A stretch of 64,000 nt of DNA from Acidimicrobiales bacterium. GTDB lineage: Bacteria; Actinomycetota; Acidimicrobiia; Acidimicrobiales; Bog-793. Positions 21,401 through 28,986 of the stretch are shown in pieces (position 1 is the first letter of the stretch; every line of letters starts with the position of its first letter). Made by a program: the position numbers and the translations under genes. The stretch covers positions 5,893 to 69,892 of the forward strand of contig JBKQMT010000038.1 in the NCBI GenBank assembly GCA_052146595.1, read 5' to 3'. The notes under the pieces are model-generated. The model was not told the DNA's origin, ran no database searches, and saw nothing but the letters and a program-made list of their open reading frames with translations.

Positions 21401-22405
21401 GTGACCGCACGACGCCGGCTGACGGTGGCGCTGGTAGTGACCGGTTCGGTCGCCGACGAGATCGACGGCCTGCGCAGGGCCCTCGGGGCCAAGGCGCTGC
21501 AGCGCATCGTCCCGCATTGCACGCTCGTCCCCCCGCTGAACATCCGCCAGGAGACCCTCGAGGCGGTGCTCGAACACGTCCGGACCGCAGCTGAGAAGAG
21601 CTCGCCCATAGCCGTGGACCTCGGACCGCCGGCCACCTTCTGGCCGCGCACTCCTGTGCTCTACCTCGAGGTCGGAGGTGACCTCGAGGCCATGTCAGAG
21701 CTCCGAGGACATCTTGCGACCGGTCCCCTCTCCCCGCCGCCGGCGCGCCGCGAGCGCGGCTTCGTGCCCCATCTCACCTTGGACCAGCGGATCGAGCCCA
21801 GCCGGCTCACCCACGCCCTCGAGGCGCTGGCCGATTACCGGGCGAGGTACTGCTTCGAGCGCGTCACCGTTCTCGAGCAGGACGCCGACCACCGCTGGAG
21901 GCCGATGGCCGACACCGCACTGGCCAGGTCAAGGCTGGTTGGGCGAGGCAGCCTCGATCTGGAGCTTTCCGTGGTCGAGCATCCCGACCCTGTCATCGCC
22001 GCCTGGGCGGACGAGCAGTGGGACGGCTACAGGCGAGAGCGCTACGGCCCGGGAGTCGGTCCCTTCGCGCCCTACGCGATCGTCGCCAGGGTCGGCGGGC
22101 GCCCGGTCGGCTTCGCCGACGGCGAGGTACGGGGCCCGGTCTTGAGGCTCGGCCGGTTGACCGTGAGCCCGGAGTGGCGCAGCCAGGGCGTAGGGTCCCA
22201 TCTGCTGCGGGCCGTGGAGAGGCTGGGCCTCGAGCGGGGTTGCGCCCGCGTCCGCCTGGAGGCGCTCGCCGGCGAGCGGGCACAGCGCTTCTACTCCGAG
22301 CGCGGCTACGCAGCCGTCGCGCTCCTCCCCCGCTGGACCGAGGAGCGCGACTTCGTCCTCATGGAGCGCGAGCTCACTCTGCCGGCAGCCCCGCCCCGCC
22401 CGTGA
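21401..22405 (+). CDS. Fusion protein: N-terminal 2H phosphoesterase (LigT/2'-5' RNA ligase-like) plus C-terminal GNAT acetyltransferase
   Basis: Two HxTx motifs (PHCTLVPP and PHLTLDQR) in the first roughly 175 aa. The C-terminus has the GNAT A-motif RSQGVGSHLLRAVERLGLERGC...FYSERGY. Confidence 0.65.
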   Translation: MTARRRLTVALVVTGSVADEIDGLRRALGAKALQRIVPHCTLVPPLNIRQETLEAVLEHVRTAAEKSSPIAVDLGPPATFWPRTPVLYLEVGGDLEAMSELRGHLATGPLSPPPARRERGFVPHLTLDQRIEPSRLTHALEALADYRARYCFERVTVLEQDADHRWRPMADTALARSRLVGRGSLDLELSVVEHPDPVIAAWADEQWDGYRRERYGPGVGPFAPYAIVARVGGRPVGFADGEVRGPVLRLGRLTVSPEWRSQGVGSHLLRAVERLGLERGCARVRLEALAGERAQRFYSERGYAAVALLPRWTEERDFVLMERELTLPAAPPRP

Positions 22406-23372
22406 GCTCGTGCGCCACCGCTTCGACGAGCCGGTCGGCCGCCTCGTCCGGGTCAGTCCGCCTGCTTCTCAGCGCCGCCAGCAGCTCGCTGTTCGCCGAG
22501 CCGGCGACGGTCGCGTCAAGAGCGGCCTCGAAACGTCCTCTCGCGATCCTCACGGCCTCCTCCCTCGCACGCTCCGCGCGCCTCGAGGTCAGCTCCCCGC
22601 CGCGCTCGAGGTGCTCGCGGTGGGAGGCGATCGCCTCCCACAGCTCGGCAATTCCCTCGCCTGTCGAAGCCACGGTCTCCACGATCGGCGGCGTCCACTC
22701 GAGGCTCCCCGAGAGCTGGAGCATGAGCCTCAGGTCGCGGGCCGTCTCCTTCACGCCGGGCCGGTCGGCCTTGTTGATGACCAGCACGTCGGCGATCTCC
22801 AGCAGCCCCGCCTTGTTCGCCTGCACAGAGTCTCCCCAGCCGGGGTTCACGACGACCACGACCGTGTCGCAGGTGGCGGCGACCTCGATCTCGACCTGGC
22901 CGACGCCCACGGTCTCGACGATCACGAGCGGCCAGCCGGTCGCGTCGAGCAGGCGTACCGCTTCGGGCACGGCGGCGGCCAGGCCACCGAGGTGGCCGCG
23001 GGTCGCCATGGAGCGGATAAAGACCTCGTCGTCGAGGGCGTGCTCCTGCATCCTCACCCTGTCCCCGAGGATCGCGCCGCCCGTCACAGGTGAGGAGGGG
23101 TCGACGGCGAGCACCGCGACCGGGATGGCGAGGCGCCCGCGGATGTCCGCCAGCACGGCGCTCGCGAGCGTGGACTTCCCAGAGCCCGGCGCCCCGGTGA
23201 AGCCCACGGCGTAGGCGCTGCCGGCTCGCCTGAAGGTCAGGGCGGACAGTTTGCGGCCTTCGGCCCCGCCCCGTTCGACGACCGAGAGCAGGCGAGCCAG
23301 GGCGCCGCGGTCACCCGAACTGGCGGCTCGGAACAGCTCTGTAGTGCTCGAGCCCCGCGCCCCGGGCCTCAC
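22374..23372 (-). CDS. meaB: MeaB/ArgK-type G3E GTPase (methylmalonyl-CoA mutase-associated chaperone family)
   Basis: P-loop GFTGAPGSGKSTL, the ETVGVGQ switch and the INKAD guanine-specificity motif. The GTG start overlaps the murA stop (GTGA). Confidence 0.8.
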   Translation of the reverse strand: MRPGARGSSTTELFRAASSGDRGALARLLSVVERGGAEGRKLSALTFRRAGSAYAVGFTGAPGSGKSTLASAVLADIRGRLAIPVAVLAVDPSSPVTGGAILGDRVRMQEHALDDEVFIRSMATRGHLGGLAAAVPEAVRLLDATGWPLVIVETVGVGQVEIEVAATCDTVVVVVNPGWGDSVQANKAGLLEIADVLVINKADRPGVKETARDLRLMLQLSGSLEWTPPIVETVASTGEGIAELWEAIASHREHLERGGELTSRRAERAREEAVRIARGRFEAALDATVAGSANSELLAALRSRRTDPDEAADRLVEAVAHELTGGAGLPAE

Positions 23373-24637
23373 GGCGACGAATCGCGCTCGATGTTCGCAC
23401 CGAGCGAGCGAAGGCGCCCGTCGAGGTCCTCGTATCCGCGGTCGATGTGCTCCGCGCCGCTCACGTCGGTGACGCCCTCGGCGGCGAGGCCGGCCAGCAC
23501 GAGCGCCGCCCCGGCGCGTATGTCCGGTGCCTGCACCCTCGCTCCCGACAGGCTGGGCACACCGCGCACGATGGCGTGATGGCCTTCGGTCTTGATCTTC
23601 GCGCCCATCCGCCTCAGCTCGTCGATGTAGCGGAAGCGACCGGCGAAGAGGTTCTCGCTCACGATCGCCACCCCGTCCGCGACCGACAGCAGCGTGACGA
23701 GCAACGGCTTGTAGTCCGTCGCCACACCAGGATAGGGAAGGGTGGCGACGTCAACCGACCTCAGACGTCCCTCGGCCGCGGCGAGGATGCCTTCGTCGGT
23801 CGGGGTGCAGGTCATGCCCATCTGGCGGAGCTTCTCGAGAAGCATGTCCATGTGCTCGGGACGCGCCCGTCTCACCAAGACTTCCCCGCCGACAAGGCCC
23901 ACGGCTGCGACGAAGGTGGCCGCCTCGACCCGGTCGGGGATCGCCCGGTGCTCCGCGGGCCGCAGATCCTCCACTCCCTCGACTTCGATGCGGGAAGTCC
24001 CGGCACCTTGTATGTGCGCCCCCATCTCGGTCAAGGTCGCGGCGAGGTCGCAGATCTCCGGCTCCCGGGCGGCGTTCTCGATCACGGTCGTGCCCTTGGC
24101 GAGCACGGCGCCCATCAAGATGTTGTCGGTCGCGGTATGGCTCGGGAATTGGAGCACGATGCGAGTGCCGACGAGGCGGTCGCAGTACCCCTCGACGTAG
24201 CCGTGCTCGGTCACAAAGGTGGCGCCCAGGTTCTCGAACGCGCTCAGGTGGAAGTCGATCGGGCGGTACCCGAAGTCGTCGCCGCCGGGCATTGACACCC
24301 TGGCGGTGCCATAACGCGCGAGCAGGGGACCGAGCACGACGATCGATGCCCGCATCTTCTCCACGAGCTCGTAAGGGGCGATGGGCGTCACGTCCTCGGG
24401 GACGGTGATCTCGAGATGCCCATCGGGGCCTCGGCCCTCATGGAGGACCTCGGCCCCCATCGCCCGGAGCACGTCCGACATGATGGCGACGTCACGGATG
24501 ACCGGGACGTTGTCGAGGCGGTGCAGGCCCGGGGCGAGAAGGCAGGCCGCCATGAGCTTCAGCACGGAGTTCTTCGCCCCGTTCACGTCGACGGTCCCCT
24601 GCAGCGGGCCGGACGGGCGCAAGACGAAGCGATCCAC
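23369..24637 (-). CDS. murA: UDP-N-acetylglucosamine 1-carboxyvinyltransferase, Asp-type active site
   Basis: GAKNSVLKLMAA and the active-site loop MPGGDDFGYRPIDFH (Asp where E. coli has Cys115). The protein is 422 aa. Confidence 0.92.
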   Translation of the reverse strand: MDRFVLRPSGPLQGTVDVNGAKNSVLKLMAACLLAPGLHRLDNVPVIRDVAIMSDVLRAMGAEVLHEGRGPDGHLEITVPEDVTPIAPYELVEKMRASIVVLGPLLARYGTARVSMPGGDDFGYRPIDFHLSAFENLGATFVTEHGYVEGYCDRLVGTRIVLQFPSHTATDNILMGAVLAKGTTVIENAAREPEICDLAATLTEMGAHIQGAGTSRIEVEGVEDLRPAEHRAIPDRVEAATFVAAVGLVGGEVLVRRARPEHMDMLLEKLRQMGMTCTPTDEGILAAAEGRLRSVDVATLPYPGVATDYKPLLVTLLSVADGVAIVSENLFAGRFRYIDELRRMGAKIKTEGHHAIVRGVPSLSGARVQAPDIRAGAALVLAGLAAEGVTDVSGAEHIDRGYEDLDGRLRSLGANIERDSSP

Positions 24638-24892
24638 GGCGAGACAGTACTGCCGGGACGGGGTCGGAGACAGCGACTCGGAGCCCGGCCGCCACTCCCT
24701 CCAGCGTGAGCGGCTGGAGCTCTCTCCCGGTCGCTCGCGCAGCAGGCGACCGCCCGCTATCGTCGGCGCCGTGAACGACCAGCGTCACCCACTCGTGCGG
24801 TCCGCGCCGGGCATGGCGGCACTCGTCGCGTCGCACCGTCAGCTCTCGGAGCTGCGCAGGTCGTCGGTTATCGAGCTCGGCTGAACCTGGCC

Positions 24893-26668
24893 GTGTCCCC
24901 CGGCTCACGTCCACTCCTGGACGATCCGCGATGGTACGAGAAGGCGGTCTTCTACGAGCTGCTCCCTCGCGGCTTTTTCGACTCCAACGCGGACGGGATC
25001 GGTGACTTGAAGGGCTTGCGGGAAAAGCTCGAGTACCTGCAGTGGCTCGGCGTCGACTGCATCTGGCTGCTGCCCTTCTACCCCTCGCCGCTGCACGACG
25101 GCGGGTACGACATCAGCGACTTCATGACCGTCGCGCCCGAGCTCGGAAACGTCGACGACCTCGCCGCAGTGGTCGAAGAGGCCCATCGCCGGGGGATCCG
25201 GATCATCTCCGACCTGGTGATGAACCACACGAGCGACGAGCATCCCTGGTTCGTCGAGTCCCGGTCGTCGCGCGACAACGAAAAGGCCGACTGGTACGTG
25301 TGGGCCGACGACAACCACCGCTTTGCCAACGTCCGGGTGATCTTCTGCGACGTCGAGCAGTCCAACTGGACCTTTGACCCACGGCGCCAGCAGTACTACT
25401 GGCATCGTTTCTACCATCATCAGCCGGACCTGAACTACGAGAACCCAGATGTCGCGGACGCGATGCTAGGAGTCGTCCGGTTCTGGCTCGATCTCGGCCT
25501 CGACGGCTTCCGGCTCGACGCCGTGCCCTATCTCTACAAGGCAGAGGGGACGACCTGCGAGAACCTGCCCGCTACCCACAAGCTGCTACGCCGCATTCGC
25601 TCCGAGATCGACAGCTCCTACCCCAACCGTGTCCTGCTGGCGGAGGTCAACCAGTGGCCGGACGTCGTCACTGAGTACTTCGGCGACGGGGACGAGTGCC
25701 ACATGTGCTTCAACTTCCCGCTCATGCCGCGCATGTTCATGGCGGTCCGCCGGGAGCAGCGCTTCCCGATCACTGAGATCCTCGCTCAGACGCCCCCGAT
25801 CCCGGACGGCTGCCAGTGGGGGATCTTCCTGCGCAATCACGATGAGCTCACCCTCGAGATGGTGACCGACGAGGAGCGCGACTACATGTACGCCGAGTAC
25901 GCTCGCGACCCCAGGATGCGCAAGAACCTCGGGATCCGGCGCCGCCTTGCTCCCCTTGTCGACAACGACCGCCGCGTCGCCGAGCTGCTCCACGGCTTGC
26001 TGCTGTCCTTGCCGGGCAGCCCGGTGCTCTACTACGGCGACGAGCTTCTCATGGGCGACAACATCTACCTCGGGGACCGGGACGGGGTCCGAACGCCGAT
26101 GCAGTGGTCGCCGGACCGCAACGCCGGTTTCTCCAGGGCCGACTTCGCACAGCTCTACCTGCCCCCGCTCATGGACCCGGTGCACGGCTACCAAGCCGTC
26201 AACGTCGAAGCGGAGCAGCGCGACCCCTCCTCGTTCCTCCACTGGCTGCGGCACATGCTGGCGGTGCGGCACCAGTACCCTCAGTTCGCCAAGGGTTCGT
26301 TCGAGGTCCTTCCCGCTGACAATCCCTCCGTGCTCGCCTATGTGCGGCGGCCCCGTGCCGGCGCGGCCCAGCCCGGCGAGGCCTCCGTGGCCGGAGGCAC
26401 TCAGCCCTCGATCGAGCCAACCGAGGCGGACGACCTGACGAGGTCGTCCGACCCGATTCATCCGGACTGGCCGACCGTCTCTGTGCTCTGCGTGTCGAAC
26501 CTGAGCCGTTTCGCCCAGCCGGCCGAGCTCAGCCTCGGTCGCTGGGAAGGCTGCACGCCGATCGAGCTCTTGGGACGGGTGCCCTTCCCGAAGATCACGT
26601 CCAAGCCCTACTCGGTCACCCTGGCGCCCTACGGCATCTACTTGTTCGAGCTCGTGGAGCGCTGTTGA
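24893..26668 (+). CDS. treS: Trehalose synthase / maltose alpha-D-glucosyltransferase (GH13)
   Basis: WYEKAVFYELLPRGFFDSNADGIGDLKGL...GVDCIWLLPFYPSPLHDGGYDISDF, GFRLDAVPYL, and FLRNHDELTLE. Confidence 0.9.
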   Translation: MSPGSRPLLDDPRWYEKAVFYELLPRGFFDSNADGIGDLKGLREKLEYLQWLGVDCIWLLPFYPSPLHDGGYDISDFMTVAPELGNVDDLAAVVEEAHRRGIRIISDLVMNHTSDEHPWFVESRSSRDNEKADWYVWADDNHRFANVRVIFCDVEQSNWTFDPRRQQYYWHRFYHHQPDLNYENPDVADAMLGVVRFWLDLGLDGFRLDAVPYLYKAEGTTCENLPATHKLLRRIRSEIDSSYPNRVLLAEVNQWPDVVTEYFGDGDECHMCFNFPLMPRMFMAVRREQRFPITEILAQTPPIPDGCQWGIFLRNHDELTLEMVTDEERDYMYAEYARDPRMRKNLGIRRRLAPLVDNDRRVAELLHGLLLSLPGSPVLYYGDELLMGDNIYLGDRDGVRTPMQWSPDRNAGFSRADFAQLYLPPLMDPVHGYQAVNVEAEQRDPSSFLHWLRHMLAVRHQYPQFAKGSFEVLPADNPSVLAYVRRPRAGAAQPGEASVAGGTQPSIEPTEADDLTRSSDPIHPDWPTVSVLCVSNLSRFAQPAELSLGRWEGCTPIELLGRVPFPKITSKPYSVTLAPYGIYLFELVERC

Positions 26669-27873
26669 TGCCGCCCGCTCCGTCTGCACTCGAAGGGCTC
26701 GTCGTCCCCTATCTCCAGCGCCAGCCCTGGTTCCTCGTGTACATGGCTCGCTACGACAGCGGCCTACGGCCCGCCTTTCGGCTGGCTGACCTCGAGATCG
26801 TGCTCGACGGCCGCCCGGGGCTGGCAAGTGTGGTCGTCACCGCCGGAGACCGCCCCTTCCATGTCCTTGTCGGGTGGCGCGACGCGGCGCAGGCACCGGC
26901 GGCCCTGGGAGAACACCAGGGCGCGGTGCTCGGAATGTGCGACGACGGCTCGGGAGAGGTGCTGTGCTACGACGCCCTTGCCGACGAGGAGCTCGCCACC
27001 GCACTGCTCTCCGTCGCCAGTGCCGGGTCCCAGAGGGCGACCCGGGCGCGCGTCGTGCAGTCGCTCGTGAGCCACGCCTCGCTCGTGTACGACGAGCGCC
27101 TGTTCATGAAGTCGTACCGGGTGCTCGAACAAGCACCCCGGCCCGAGATAGAGCTCCTGGGCAGGCTGGACGAGGTCGGTTTCGAGCAGATACTGAGGCC
27201 GGTCGCGAACTGGAAGCGGAACGGGTGGGACCTGGCACTTGTCCGCGAGTACATCCCGGGCGCCGTCGAGGGCCGCTGGCTGGCGCTGACCTCCCTGCGC
27301 GACCTGTTCGGCCGCAACACCGACGAGGAGAGGCTGGGACGTGACGAGGCTGGCGGGGCCGGCGGCGACCTCTCCTCGGAGATGCGCCGCCTCGGAGAGA
27401 TCACGGGCGGCCTCCATCTGGCCCTCGCCGAGGCCTTCGGTGTTCGCCCACTGGCTGCCGGCGAGGCCTCGCCCGGCGTCGGCATCAGGGTTCACGGGGA
27501 TTACCATCTCCGCCGGGTCTTCCGGACCGACGCCGGCTGGATCGTCGGCGGTTTCGGCGACGACCCGCTGATCGGCAGGTCCGACGACAACCTGGCGCGG
27601 CGTGAGCCGCGTTTTGCCTCGCCGCTCGAGGACCTGGCGGATCTTTCCTACTCGCTCGGCCAGGTGGCGACCGAAGCCGTGGCGGAGCAGCCGCCCGTTA
27701 CCTGGGCTCAGGCCGAGCGGCTCGCCAAGGCCTGGGAACGTCGCAACCGGGGCTCCTTGTTGAGCGGCTACCTCGGCATCGACGGGATCTCGAGGCTCGT
27801 GACCCTGGAGCGCTCGGAGGTGGCAGAGGAGCTCAAGTCCCTCGTCGCCGCGCGCATCGCCGCGGCCTGCTAG
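26665..27873 (+). CDS. Maltokinase (Pep2/Mak)-like protein with degenerate catalytic motifs, possibly a pseudokinase
   Basis: It aligns by eye to mycobacterial Mak (LQRQPWF, HVLVGW, LFMKSYRV, EYIPGAVEG, VHGDYHL). However, HGDLHLGQ reads HGDYHLRR and IDFEGEP reads GGFGDDP. The start overlaps the treS stop. Confidence 0.65.
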   Translation: MMPPAPSALEGLVVPYLQRQPWFLVYMARYDSGLRPAFRLADLEIVLDGRPGLASVVVTAGDRPFHVLVGWRDAAQAPAALGEHQGAVLGMCDDGSGEVLCYDALADEELATALLSVASAGSQRATRARVVQSLVSHASLVYDERLFMKSYRVLEQAPRPEIELLGRLDEVGFEQILRPVANWKRNGWDLALVREYIPGAVEGRWLALTSLRDLFGRNTDEERLGRDEAGGAGGDLSSEMRRLGEITGGLHLALAEAFGVRPLAAGEASPGVGIRVHGDYHLRRVFRTDAGWIVGGFGDDPLIGRSDDNLARREPRFASPLEDLADLSYSLGQVATEAVAEQPPVTWAQAERLAKAWERRNRGSLLSGYLGIDGISRLVTLERSEVAEELKSLVAARIAAAC

Positions 27874-27909: not shown

Positions 27910-28986
27910 TCAGGAGGCGGCGGTCACACGCCCGTCTGCGGGGTCGGGCTCGACGCGACCAAGGGCCTCGCGCAGGTCTTCGGCGGCCTTCTCGGGCCCG
28001 ACGACGTTGATCATGACCCCGGTGCCGAGCTCAAAACCTGCACGGGTGGTCAAGCAGGGCAGGATGTGGACGTGCCAGTGGTACGCACTGGTAGCACGGT
28101 AGGGAGCTGAGTGGAACACGACGTTGTAGGCCACGTCTCCGAGGCTCTCGTTGATCGCCCGGAGAGCGCTGCGTACGGCGCGCCCGACGCCCACGATGCT
28201 TTCGGTGGACGCCCGGTGGAGATGAGCGCCGTGGTCGCGGGGGACGATGAGAACCTCGTAGGGCGTCCCGCTCCAGTAAGGGCAGAACGTCACAGCGTGA
28301 TCGGTCGCCCGGATTATCCGGTAGTCGACCCTCTCCTCGGAGGCGGCAGCCGCACAGACGAGGCAGCCGCCTGCGAAACGGTCGAAACCGGCCAGCTCCT
28401 CCGCAAGCTCCCTCGGCACGAACGGGATCCCGAGCAGCTGGCCGTGCGGGTGCGCTATGGAGGCACCCGCCTGGCGTCCGTGGTTGATGATCACCTGGCT
28501 GTAGCGCAGGCCGGGCGTGGTCTCGTGCTCGCGCACGCGGTCGCGAATGGCGAGCATGACGAGCTCCAGCTGCTCGTCCGCGAGAGAGGCCAGGGTCTTG
28601 TCGTGGTCAGGGGAGAGGACGAGCACTTCGTGGATCCCGCTCGCCGGGGCCTCTGTGAACACCGGCCCACGGTTCTCGACGACGAATGGCCTGTCACCCT
28701 CGAAGGCCGGGTAGCGGTTCGGGAGCACGCGAACGAGCCAGTCTCCGGAGCTTCCATAGACCTCGAGCGCGGGCGGGGCGAAAGCCTCCATTTCCGGGCA
28801 GAACGGACACGGAATGCCCTCGAGCGAGTCGAGCGTGAGCTGGCGCGGGACGAAGAGCGACTGTCGCTGAGCGCGATCGGTGGCCACCGTCACCCACCGG
28901 CCCGAAAGCGGGTCGAGGCGAAGCTGGTTCACGCTCGGGCGCGAACCTTCGACGGGCGCAGACGGGGCCTTGTCATTTGTCTTCAC
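27910..28986 (-). CDS. galT: Galactose-1-phosphate uridylyltransferase-family (GalT/HIT) nucleotidyltransferase
   Basis: RLDPLSGRWVTVATDR, the Zn-site CPFCPE, the active site HPHGQL, and a second half-domain with HWHVHILP. Confidence 0.8.
   Translation of the reverse strand: MKTNDKAPSAPVEGSRPSVNQLRLDPLSGRWVTVATDRAQRQSLFVPRQLTLDSLEGIPCPFCPEMEAFAPPALEVYGSSGDWLVRVLPNRYPAFEGDRPFVVENRGPVFTEAPASGIHEVLVLSPDHDKTLASLADEQLELVMLAIRDRVREHETTPGLRYSQVIINHGRQAGASIAHPHGQLLGIPFVPRELAEELAGFDRFAGGCLVCAAAASEERVDYRIIRATDHAVTFCPYWSGTPYEVLIVPRDHGAHLHRASTESIVGVGRAVRSALRAINESLGDVAYNVVFHSAPYRATSAYHWHVHILPCLTTRAGFELGTGVMINVVGPEKAAEDLREALGRVEPDPADGRVTAAS

Follow-up and report, generated by a model that had tools for sequence, protein, structure and literature searches.

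Maltokinases and Related Kinases

Maltokinase (Mak, also called Pep2; EC 2.7.1.175) is represented by three solved mycobacterial structures (4o7o, 4u94, and 5jy7) and is the described enzyme closest to the protein considered here, which is encoded on the forward strand at 26665-27873 of a 64-kb stretch of DNA from an Acidimicrobiales bacterium (contig JBKQMT010000038.1; the whole stretch is called the window), in a gene directly after treS. In the Mak of Mycobacterium vanbaalenii (MvMak), Gln310 and Asp322 hold the first magnesium ion (Mg1) and Asp322 also holds the second (Mg2), Lys149 binds the phosphates, Asp305 is the base, Ser136 of the P-loop contacts the gamma-phosphate, and Trp14 of the N-terminal cap stacks on Arg152 (PMC4306142). 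In the M. tuberculosis enzyme (MtMak), the D339N substitution and mutation of Asn145 each abolish activity (PMC4306142), and maltose is contacted by W222, D322, H324, P344, S367, Y370, K426, Y429, E430, Y433, and R438 (PMC4171701). The window protein shares the fold of this enzyme and its position behind treS, and both of the Mg ligands are replaced in it.

Mak has a known protein partner in mycobacteria, where Pep2 docks on the C-terminal beta-sandwich of the trehalose synthase (TreS) tetramer; the structure of the TreS:Pep2 complex is incompatible with substrate channelling, and complex formation brings little or no increase in rate (PMC6509496).

The glucosamine kinases of actinobacteria, known from SjGlcNK (6hwj-6hwl), resemble the window protein in being Mak paralogues with a changed function, and they provide its second-best structural match. 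They differ in keeping the K133, D300, Q305, and D317 set (PMC6520443) and in carrying the signature Q-x2-RE-x2-YA-x3-LP-x-W. Membership of the window protein in this group was considered and rejected, as the signature is absent, the Gln and Asp are replaced, and the glucosamine kinase model NF041273 scores 30.5 bits against a cut-off of 550.

Loss of the Metal Ligands and of Most of the Maltose Pocket

The window protein is very probably not a maltokinase, because the metal ligands, the P-loop Asn, and most of the acceptor pocket are lost, the pocket helix varies, and glgE is missing from every locus. In how it would work, it comes closest to a pseudokinase subunit and departs most from a maltokinase. 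The gene, a member of what is here called the RR family, encodes 402 aa from the TTG at 26665 or 401 aa from the ATG at 26668 and ends with a stop codon at 27871-27873; residue numbers are counted from the TTG. Residue equivalences were taken from HMMER alignments to 4o7o, 5jy7_I, and 4u94, the three mycobacterial maltokinases that were also the only PDB entries matched by phmmer (E 1e-18 to 4e-11). The collinear Mak motifs reported for the gene are all present, namely LQRQPWF (aa 17-23), HVLVGW (aa 66-71), LFMKSYRV (aa 146-153), EYIPGAVEG (aa 195-203), and the HGD of the catalytic loop (aa 277-279).

Two motifs had been singled out as deviating from Mak, and both deviations are paired without gaps in all three alignments. 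The catalytic loop (27493-27516, forward strand; aa 277-284) reads HGDYHLRR for HGDLHLGQ, with D279 and H281 kept, the Gly replaced by R283, and the Mg1 ligand Gln (MvMak Gln310) replaced by R284. The segment that corresponds to IDFEGEP (27547-27567, forward strand; aa 295-301) reads GGFGDDP, with the Asp (MvMak Asp322) replaced by G296, the first Glu by G298, the Gly by D299, and the second Glu by D300. Loss of both Mg ligands was thus correctly called. An alignment shift that would bring Asp and Gln/Asn back to these positions, the outcome against which the original prediction had been staked, is rejected by the absence of any indel between HGD and DFE in the three alignments; the distance from the catalytic Asp to the DFE position is 17 residues in the window protein and in Mak alike, with shared GW flanks, and with identical spacing no shift can rescue the ligands. 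The acidic residues nearest to the lost DFE Asp (Gly296) are D299 at +3 and D300 at +4. By the sequence definition given in PMC13519141, a pseudokinase lacks the beta3 Lys, the catalytic-loop Asp, or the DFG Asp, and the window protein falls under it through Gly296 at the DFG-equivalent position.

The remainder of the nucleotide site is a mixture of kept and exchanged residues. The P-loop equivalent, SLVSHASL (27061-27084, forward strand; aa 133-140 by HMMER alignment), stands in the place of AEQSNTSV; its Ser is kept as S136, while the Glu, Gln, and Asn have become L134, Val, and H137. The beta3 strand LFMKSYRV (27100-27123, forward strand) retains the phosphate-binding Lys as K149, a residue that canonical Maks have as well and that does not vary within the family. 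The residues kept further include E161 of alphaC, E202 on the ribose side, His251, D279, H281, P301, D323 of the DVA motif, and S330. The N-terminal cap subdomain (26710-26985, forward strand; aa 16-107), with Q20, W22, and the HVLVGW strand, is the only part of the protein recognized by Pfam (PF18085, Mak_N_cap; 25.2 bits against a cut-off of 22), and Q20, W22, and R152 are common to the window protein and the canonical Maks. The Pfam APH model found no match in the window protein, while canonical Acidimicrobiales Maks do match it, and with TIGR02457, the NCBIfam model for maltokinase, the protein reaches 54.8 bits, far from the cut-off of 375.

The maltose pocket is affected more heavily. 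Among the 11 maltose contacts of MtMak, only D279, H281, P301, and S330 have been kept; K426 is replaced by R397, and six are lost outright (the equivalents of W222, Y370, Y429, E430, Y433, and R438). The C-terminal motif FELDKAxYExxYExxxRPxW, which supplies five maltose contacts in canonical Mak, is gone, and the short C-terminal helix at its place (27811-27867, forward strand; aa 383-401) is without KAxYExxYExxxRPxW, R397 alone aligning with the Lys. The protein had been described as about 50 aa shorter than mycobacterial Mak, and it does have 402 aa against 441-455 aa; the deficit is mostly C-terminal, and the missing motif accounts for most of the 40-50 residues. Altogether, the window protein fails six defining Mak features among those that can be tested.

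A comparison of 116 family members with 44 canonical Maks found fixed switches of Glu to L134, Asn to H137, Arg to V153, and Asn to R159 in the N-terminal part, of Gly to R283, Gln to R284, Asp to G296, Glu to G298, Gly to D299, and Glu to D300 in and behind the catalytic loop, and of Gly to D326 and Lys to R397 toward the C-terminus.

The predicted structure is in keeping with the origin from Mak. An AlphaFold2 model built on 49 family members reached a predicted local distance difference test (pLDDT) score of 87.9 and a predicted template modelling score of 0.85, with pLDDT below 50 in the loop of aa 300-312 after GGFGDDP. The top Foldseek matches of the model were the maltokinases 4u94, 5jy7, and 4o7o (TM-score 0.64-0.69), followed by the glucosamine kinase 6hwl (TM-score about 0.5). 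According to this model, the Mak fold is retained, including the Mak-specific N-terminal cap. The window protein is like Mak/Pep2 in fold, cap, place behind treS, and overlap of start and stop, and it shares with it the beta3 Lys, the Asp residues of the HGD, DVA, and GGD motifs (the last at the TreS interface), His251, and the Trp/Arg pair of the cap. It is unlike Mak/Pep2 in an identity of only about 22-24%, in the exchange of the Mg ligands (Gln to Arg, Asp to Gly), in a P-loop with LVSH for EQSN, in the lack of the C-terminal KAxYExxYExxxRPxW helix and of adjoining glgE or glgB genes, and in failing both the NCBIfam and the Pfam APH models.

Conservation and Distribution of the RR Family

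A comparison of orthologues had been proposed together with the original prediction, and it found both substituted motifs conserved throughout the family. The loop HGD[YF]HLRR[VI] occurs in 120 of the best 120 homologues (48-95% identity), all of which are metagenomic; those with an organism name belong without exception to an Acidimicrobiales metagenome-assembled genome (MAG). In the full-length homologues (n=107), G296, F297, D299, D300, and P301 are invariant, and G298 is present in 106. As both motifs are fixed or almost fixed across more than 100 homologues of 42-95% identity, the substitutions are not due to chance or sequencing error. An exhaustive search of 1.84 billion representatives matched 1100 proteins. 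A scan of one genome per GTDB species, with a pattern that itself included HGDYHLRRV and left GF[GSA]DDP and MK.YR free, located the gene in 71 MAGs assigned to Acidimicrobiales, to Acidimicrobiaceae, or to otherwise unclassified actinobacteria; GF[GSA]DDP was found in 70 and the Lys of MK.YR in 65 of the 72 species-representative loci. RR-type sequences form a clade in 100 of 100 neighbor-joining (NJ) bootstraps. The source habitats of the 71 MAGs are mostly peat (SPRUCE and the bog, fen, and palsa of Stordalen) and Danish soils, and the nearest relative of the window is Acidimicrobiales bacterium SPRUCE_142, with 94% identity in the Mak-derived protein and 98% in TreS.

The gene is under purifying constraint in all comparisons made. 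The ratio of nonsynonymous to synonymous substitution rates (dN/dS) against five orthologues is 0.15-0.25, and that of TreS in the same pairs is 0.08-0.16; the G + C content at third codon positions (GC3) is 0.87 in a window of 69% GC, and the codon bias is that of a real gene. Constraint is distributed unevenly along the protein, the catalytic loop being the most conserved nine-residue window of the family (entropy 0.05 bits, against a mean of 1.40) and the C-terminus the least conserved region (2.59 bits).

Linkage to treS and Absence of Glucan Genes from the Locus

The treS gene of the window (maltose alpha-D-glucosyltransferase; 24893-26668, forward strand; 591 aa) is intact. Its product scores 882.6 bits with TIGR02456 (cut-off 678), is about 75% identical to solved TreS structures (E about 1e-250), and contains the catalytic motifs GFRLDAVPY, LLAEVNQW, and LRNHDELT. 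The translational coupling claimed for the Mak-derived gene agrees with the sequence, since both candidate starts, TTG 26665 and ATG 26668, overlap the treS stop (TGA, 26666-26668), and a Shine-Dalgarno-like GGAG, read from the sequence within the 3' end of treS (26656-26659, forward strand), lies 8 nt upstream of the ATG. Such overlap was found in 40 of 74 RR loci, most others having gaps of 1-4 nt. The RR gene stands directly after treS in the MAG loci of the 71 species and in four further loci (L001-L004) wherever upstream DNA is present, three truncated loci being without it.

The window order of murA on the reverse strand, treS, the Mak-derived gene, and a convergent GalT/HIT-type gene is repeated in every RR locus fetched, although some of these loci have an inserted glpX or an inverted murA. 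Some Acidimicrobiales have canonical maltokinases (e.g., HEX7165742.1), and their loci (L006 and L007) have the order MurA-(NifU)-MeaB-ECH-glgP(-)-glgE-treS-mak-glgB-(GH57)-...-galT(-), so that glgP and glgE fill the space between murA and treS. The slot is thus a shared one in which the canonical loci have retained the glucan genes, and the window gene is therefore the positional orthologue of mak.

The contrast in context between the two kinds of loci is complete. A second degenerate group, the GR class described below, was included in this count through a metagenome scan with a seven-sequence GR alignment, which added 80 loci; the count uses loci with at least 2.5 kb of flank, sets aside one proteobacterial fusion (L079), and holds some RR loci that duplicate a single contig. 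On this basis, glgE, glgB, or glgP is nearby in 25 of 25 canonical loci, in none of 77 RR loci, and in none of 33 GR loci (0 of 110 degenerate loci in total; Fisher p about 2e-26). None of the three genes lies within 10 kb in the 77 RR loci, and neither glgE nor glgB is among the ten largest open reading frames (ORFs) of the window.

Evidence from beyond the loci came from a co-occurrence proxy that pairs contigs of equal size in base pairs. Here, 184 RR-bearing contigs (27 of at least 200 kb; 26 Mb in total) were compared with the contigs of the 120 best GlgE and the 120 best canonical Mak relatives, lists that reach down to 64% and 56% identity, respectively. The two lists have 16 contigs in common, which served as the control, and no GlgE or canonical Mak from them lies on the 184 RR-bearing contigs, a result that covers relatives of at least 64% and 56% identity only. 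Two coincidences in size were discarded, as the contig of 4915 bp, when fetched, was a different one and that of 2192 bp is too short for both genes. The proxy is mild evidence that glgE and canonical mak are absent from RR genomes.

The GR Class and Other Arg-Containing Relatives

Other Acidimicrobiales carry a second, more heterogeneous group of degenerate Mak-like proteins, the GR class (loci L083, L084, and L085-L127; proteins P0148, P0155-P0157, P0176, P0200, P0518, and P0522). Its motifs are HGDxHLGR and D[CWF]xPGG, the beta3 Lys is replaced by Ser or Thr, and neither an EQSN P-loop nor a C-terminal KAxYE helix is present. GR genes follow treS in the same slot without glgE or glgB, overlap the treS stop in 41 of 43 loci, and are often followed by pfk. 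The class is sister to the RR clade in the NJ tree. It is like the RR family in the place after treS, the lack of glgE and glgB at the locus, the loss of the C-terminal helix and of EQSN, and the Arg at the Gln position; it is unlike it in having lost the beta3 Lys while mostly keeping Asp at the DFE position, whereas the RR family retains that Lys but has Gly in place of the Asp. An assignment of these HLGR proteins as glucosamine kinases proved wrong, given that glucosamine kinases keep the Gln and DFD.

The Arg-Arg loop is not confined to the Acidimicrobiales family and can be found beside a glucan gene. A proteobacterial TreS-Mak fusion adjoining glgB (L079:3937-7539, from the Steroidobacteraceae MAG contig JANWKR010000011.1) has the HGDYHLRRV loop in its kinase domain and keeps DFEG, while its P-loop (TQGGNTTA) and its C-terminal helix are degenerate.

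Possible Roles of the Mak-Derived Protein

The mak-derived gene very probably no longer encodes a maltokinase, and the favored reading, at about even odds, is that it lost this function as the GlgE genes disappeared from the locus and was kept for another role, most likely that of a non-catalytic partner of TreS. That the gene has stayed paired and translationally coupled with treS suggests TreS as the probable partner. The window TreS keeps the equivalents of R312, P503, and R534 of M. smegmatis (Msm) TreS, interface residues probed by mutagenesis (PMC6509496), and on the side of the Mak-derived protein, the equivalent of Pep2 Asp228 is the invariant D235, while that of D218 lies in a variable loop of low confidence. 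The GR class bears on this reading as well; since it has also lost the beta3 Lys, catalysis was possibly dispensable already in the common ancestor, which tips the balance moderately toward a non-catalytic role.

A scenario of this kind would begin with an ancestral glgP/glgE-treS-mak-glgB cluster that was reduced to treS and the Mak-derived gene. Maltose-1-phosphate accumulates to toxic levels when GlgE is inactive (PMC4663749), and the loss of glgE would have selected for silencing of the kinase, its product being toxic without GlgE. The protein would have been retained thanks to a second job, would be produced in step with TreS through the overlap of stop and start, and would dock on the TreS tetramer in the manner of mycobacterial Pep2. 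It would then act as a non-phosphorylating subunit, with an arginine-rich cleft that is either locked by internal salt bridges or able to bind a nucleotide or sugar-phosphate; R283 and R284 could pair with D299, D300, and E322 to lock the empty cleft.

Several points weigh against a non-catalytic TreS partner. The former nucleotide/phosphate cleft is frozen, as conservation is highest in the catalytic loop and GFGDDP and at the beta3 Lys, alphaC acid, and hinge. A working ligand or catalytic site would be expected to look like this, in line with the different mechanism or substrate that the original prediction had named as an alternative, and K149, E161, and D279 are all retained. The protein kinase CASK, with HRD and GFG, is active independently of Mg (PMC2639636). 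In mycobacteria, it is TreS that modulates Pep2, and modestly so, with no effect of Pep2 on TreS known, and the TreS:Pep2 complex is weak, with a dissociation constant of 3.5 uM (PMC6509496). It is also possible that glgE or a second mak is encoded elsewhere in the RR genomes.

CASK and VRK3, which has GFG for DFG, resemble the window protein in the retained catalytic-loop Asp and the G-F-G sequence, and in CASK the metal-binding Asn/Gln position is replaced too. They differ in being protein kinases, related to it only through the eukaryotic-like kinase fold, and the resemblance is convergent. The label of candidate pseudokinase in the original prediction holds insofar as the protein is not a conventional maltokinase and is a pseudokinase as defined by sequence, having lost the Mg ligands, the pocket helix, recognition by TIGR02457, and the glgE and glgB genes at its locus. 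It does not extend to catalytic death, because CASK is active without Mg2+ and VRK3 is inactive, and sequence alone cannot decide between a dead and an Mg-independent kinase.

On the conservation pattern just described, the cleft formed by R159, R283, R284, D299, and D300, together with K149, E161, and D279, might be a working site, either of an Mg2+-independent phosphotransferase that uses a new acceptor or of a sensor for a nucleotide or sugar-phosphate that sets the direction or activity of TreS; this is conceivable and on the whole doubtful. If true, a kinase of the pathway would have become, in Acidimicrobiales, a subunit of trehalose synthase with a regulatory or new enzymatic function. 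The fully enzymatic version, rather unlikely in itself, supposes a remodelled active enzyme in which R159, R283, and R284 handle phosphate in place of Mg2+, D299 and D300 perhaps serve as relocated metal ligands, and phosphate transfer or some related chemistry acts on a substrate that is not maltose. It would explain why the beta3 Lys, the alphaC Glu, the HGD Asp, H281, the hinge, and the ribose-proximal Glu202 are invariant, why the remodelled loops are the most constrained, and why the charge swap looks coordinated, in that three acids, one Gln, and one Asn disappear while three Arg and a shifted pair of Asp residues appear. Precedents are found in CASK (HRD and GFG) and titin (EFG) (PMC2639636), and the glucosamine kinases show that Mak paralogues can switch substrate (PMC6520443). 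However, the DFE/DFD Asp is essential in both characterized branches of the superfamily, the acceptor-pocket helix is lost and the region unconstrained with no new conserved C-terminal motif, the GR sister class is also without the beta3 Lys, and the neighborhood offers no candidate substrate.

A functional protein that does not bind TreS, such as a stand-alone sugar or nucleotide sensor that stays near treS by operon inheritance, is a still less probable explanation. It would sit well with the weak affinity and unclear function of the known TreS:Pep2 complex and with the confident mapping of only one of the two Pep2 salt-bridge Asp residues. The gene nevertheless follows treS in every RR locus with upstream DNA, the tight spacing is kept in about 70 species and in the GR class, and the linkage survives rearrangement of the flanks, where murA is inverted and glpX and pfk are gained or lost.

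That the protein is still a maltokinase, feeding a GlgE encoded elsewhere and binding Mg2+ through D299 or D300, is very unlikely. The linkage and coupling to treS are those of canonical loci, the pocket still has its Asp, His, Pro, and Ser as well as a basic residue in the place of K426, and a distant glgE is conceivable; yet 7 of the 11 maltose contacts are changed, the essential P-loop Asn is a His, the TIGR02457 score is far below its cut-off, the anti-correlation with adjoining glg genes is perfect, and the best-120 lists place no GlgE or canonical Mak on the 184 RR contigs, against 16 contigs that link GlgE and canonical Mak. A decaying pseudogene or assembly artefact, which has nothing more in its favor than the loss of canonical motifs, can be dismissed in view of the intact frame, the GC3 of 0.87, the dN/dS of 0.15-0.25, the motif invariance in more than 100 sequences, and the confident fold prediction.

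Returning to the non-catalytic TreS partner, its interest would lie in a protein that has been kept beside treS in about 70 species after removal of its kinase chemistry and of the downstream pathway, as also seems to have happened by another route in the sister clade. Such a protein would be a pseudokinase descended from a small-molecule kinase, of which bacteria offer few examples, would make a kinase-independent role of Mak directly testable, and would bear on why TreS and Pep2 form a complex. The anti-correlation with glgE and glgB fits the idea that maltose-1-phosphate toxicity has shaped the evolution of the pathway. Within the collection of papers searched, none joins maltokinase with pseudokinase. 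In databases, the proteins are named "maltokinase N-terminal cap-like domain-containing protein" or "hypothetical" by NCBI and "maltokinase" or "predicted trehalose synthase" by JGI, and for many Acidimicrobiales of soil and peat, the label "maltokinase" would falsely suggest that a GlgE pathway is present.

Neighboring Genes

Scans for promoters, terminators, and Rfam families around the treS operon gave nothing informative. The upstream edge of the syntenic slot is murA (23369-24637, reverse strand), with neither glgP nor glgE between it and treS; the two genes are separated in the window by a spacer of 255 bp (24638-24892), and likewise only by a spacer in the closest relatives (L008, L010, and L013). 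Many other relatives (L001, L003, L004, and others) have glpX, for a class II fructose-1,6-bisphosphatase, between murA and treS. The treS slot repeatedly gains and loses sugar-phosphate genes, namely glpX and, in GR loci, pfk.

The C-terminal beta-sandwich of the window TreS, the domain on which Pep2 docks in mycobacteria, carries a low-complexity insert of about 43 residues (26351-26479; TreS aa 487-529). It was considered as a lineage-specific adaptation for docking and rejected, as it is variable in length and sequence and a shorter one is found at a canonical-Mak locus.

The downstream edge of the slot is formed by the convergent GalT/HIT-type nucleotidyltransferase gene (27910-28986, reverse strand; Pfam GalP_UDP_transf, HIT, and DUF4921). 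Its product has a CPFC zinc motif and an HPHGQ active-site motif, and the gene is syntenic with the treS-mak slot whether the locus is canonical, RR, or GR. The wider surroundings in the window are of the housekeeping kind, with genes for ATP synthase, Rho, LigA, PknB, GatB, and ilv/leu functions. Farther upstream, the gene at 21401-22405 (forward strand) has an orthologue in L001 whose annotation gives a 2',5'-RNA-ligase/LigT-like phosphoesterase domain fused to a GNAT acetyltransferase domain, and it is kept upstream in several relatives.

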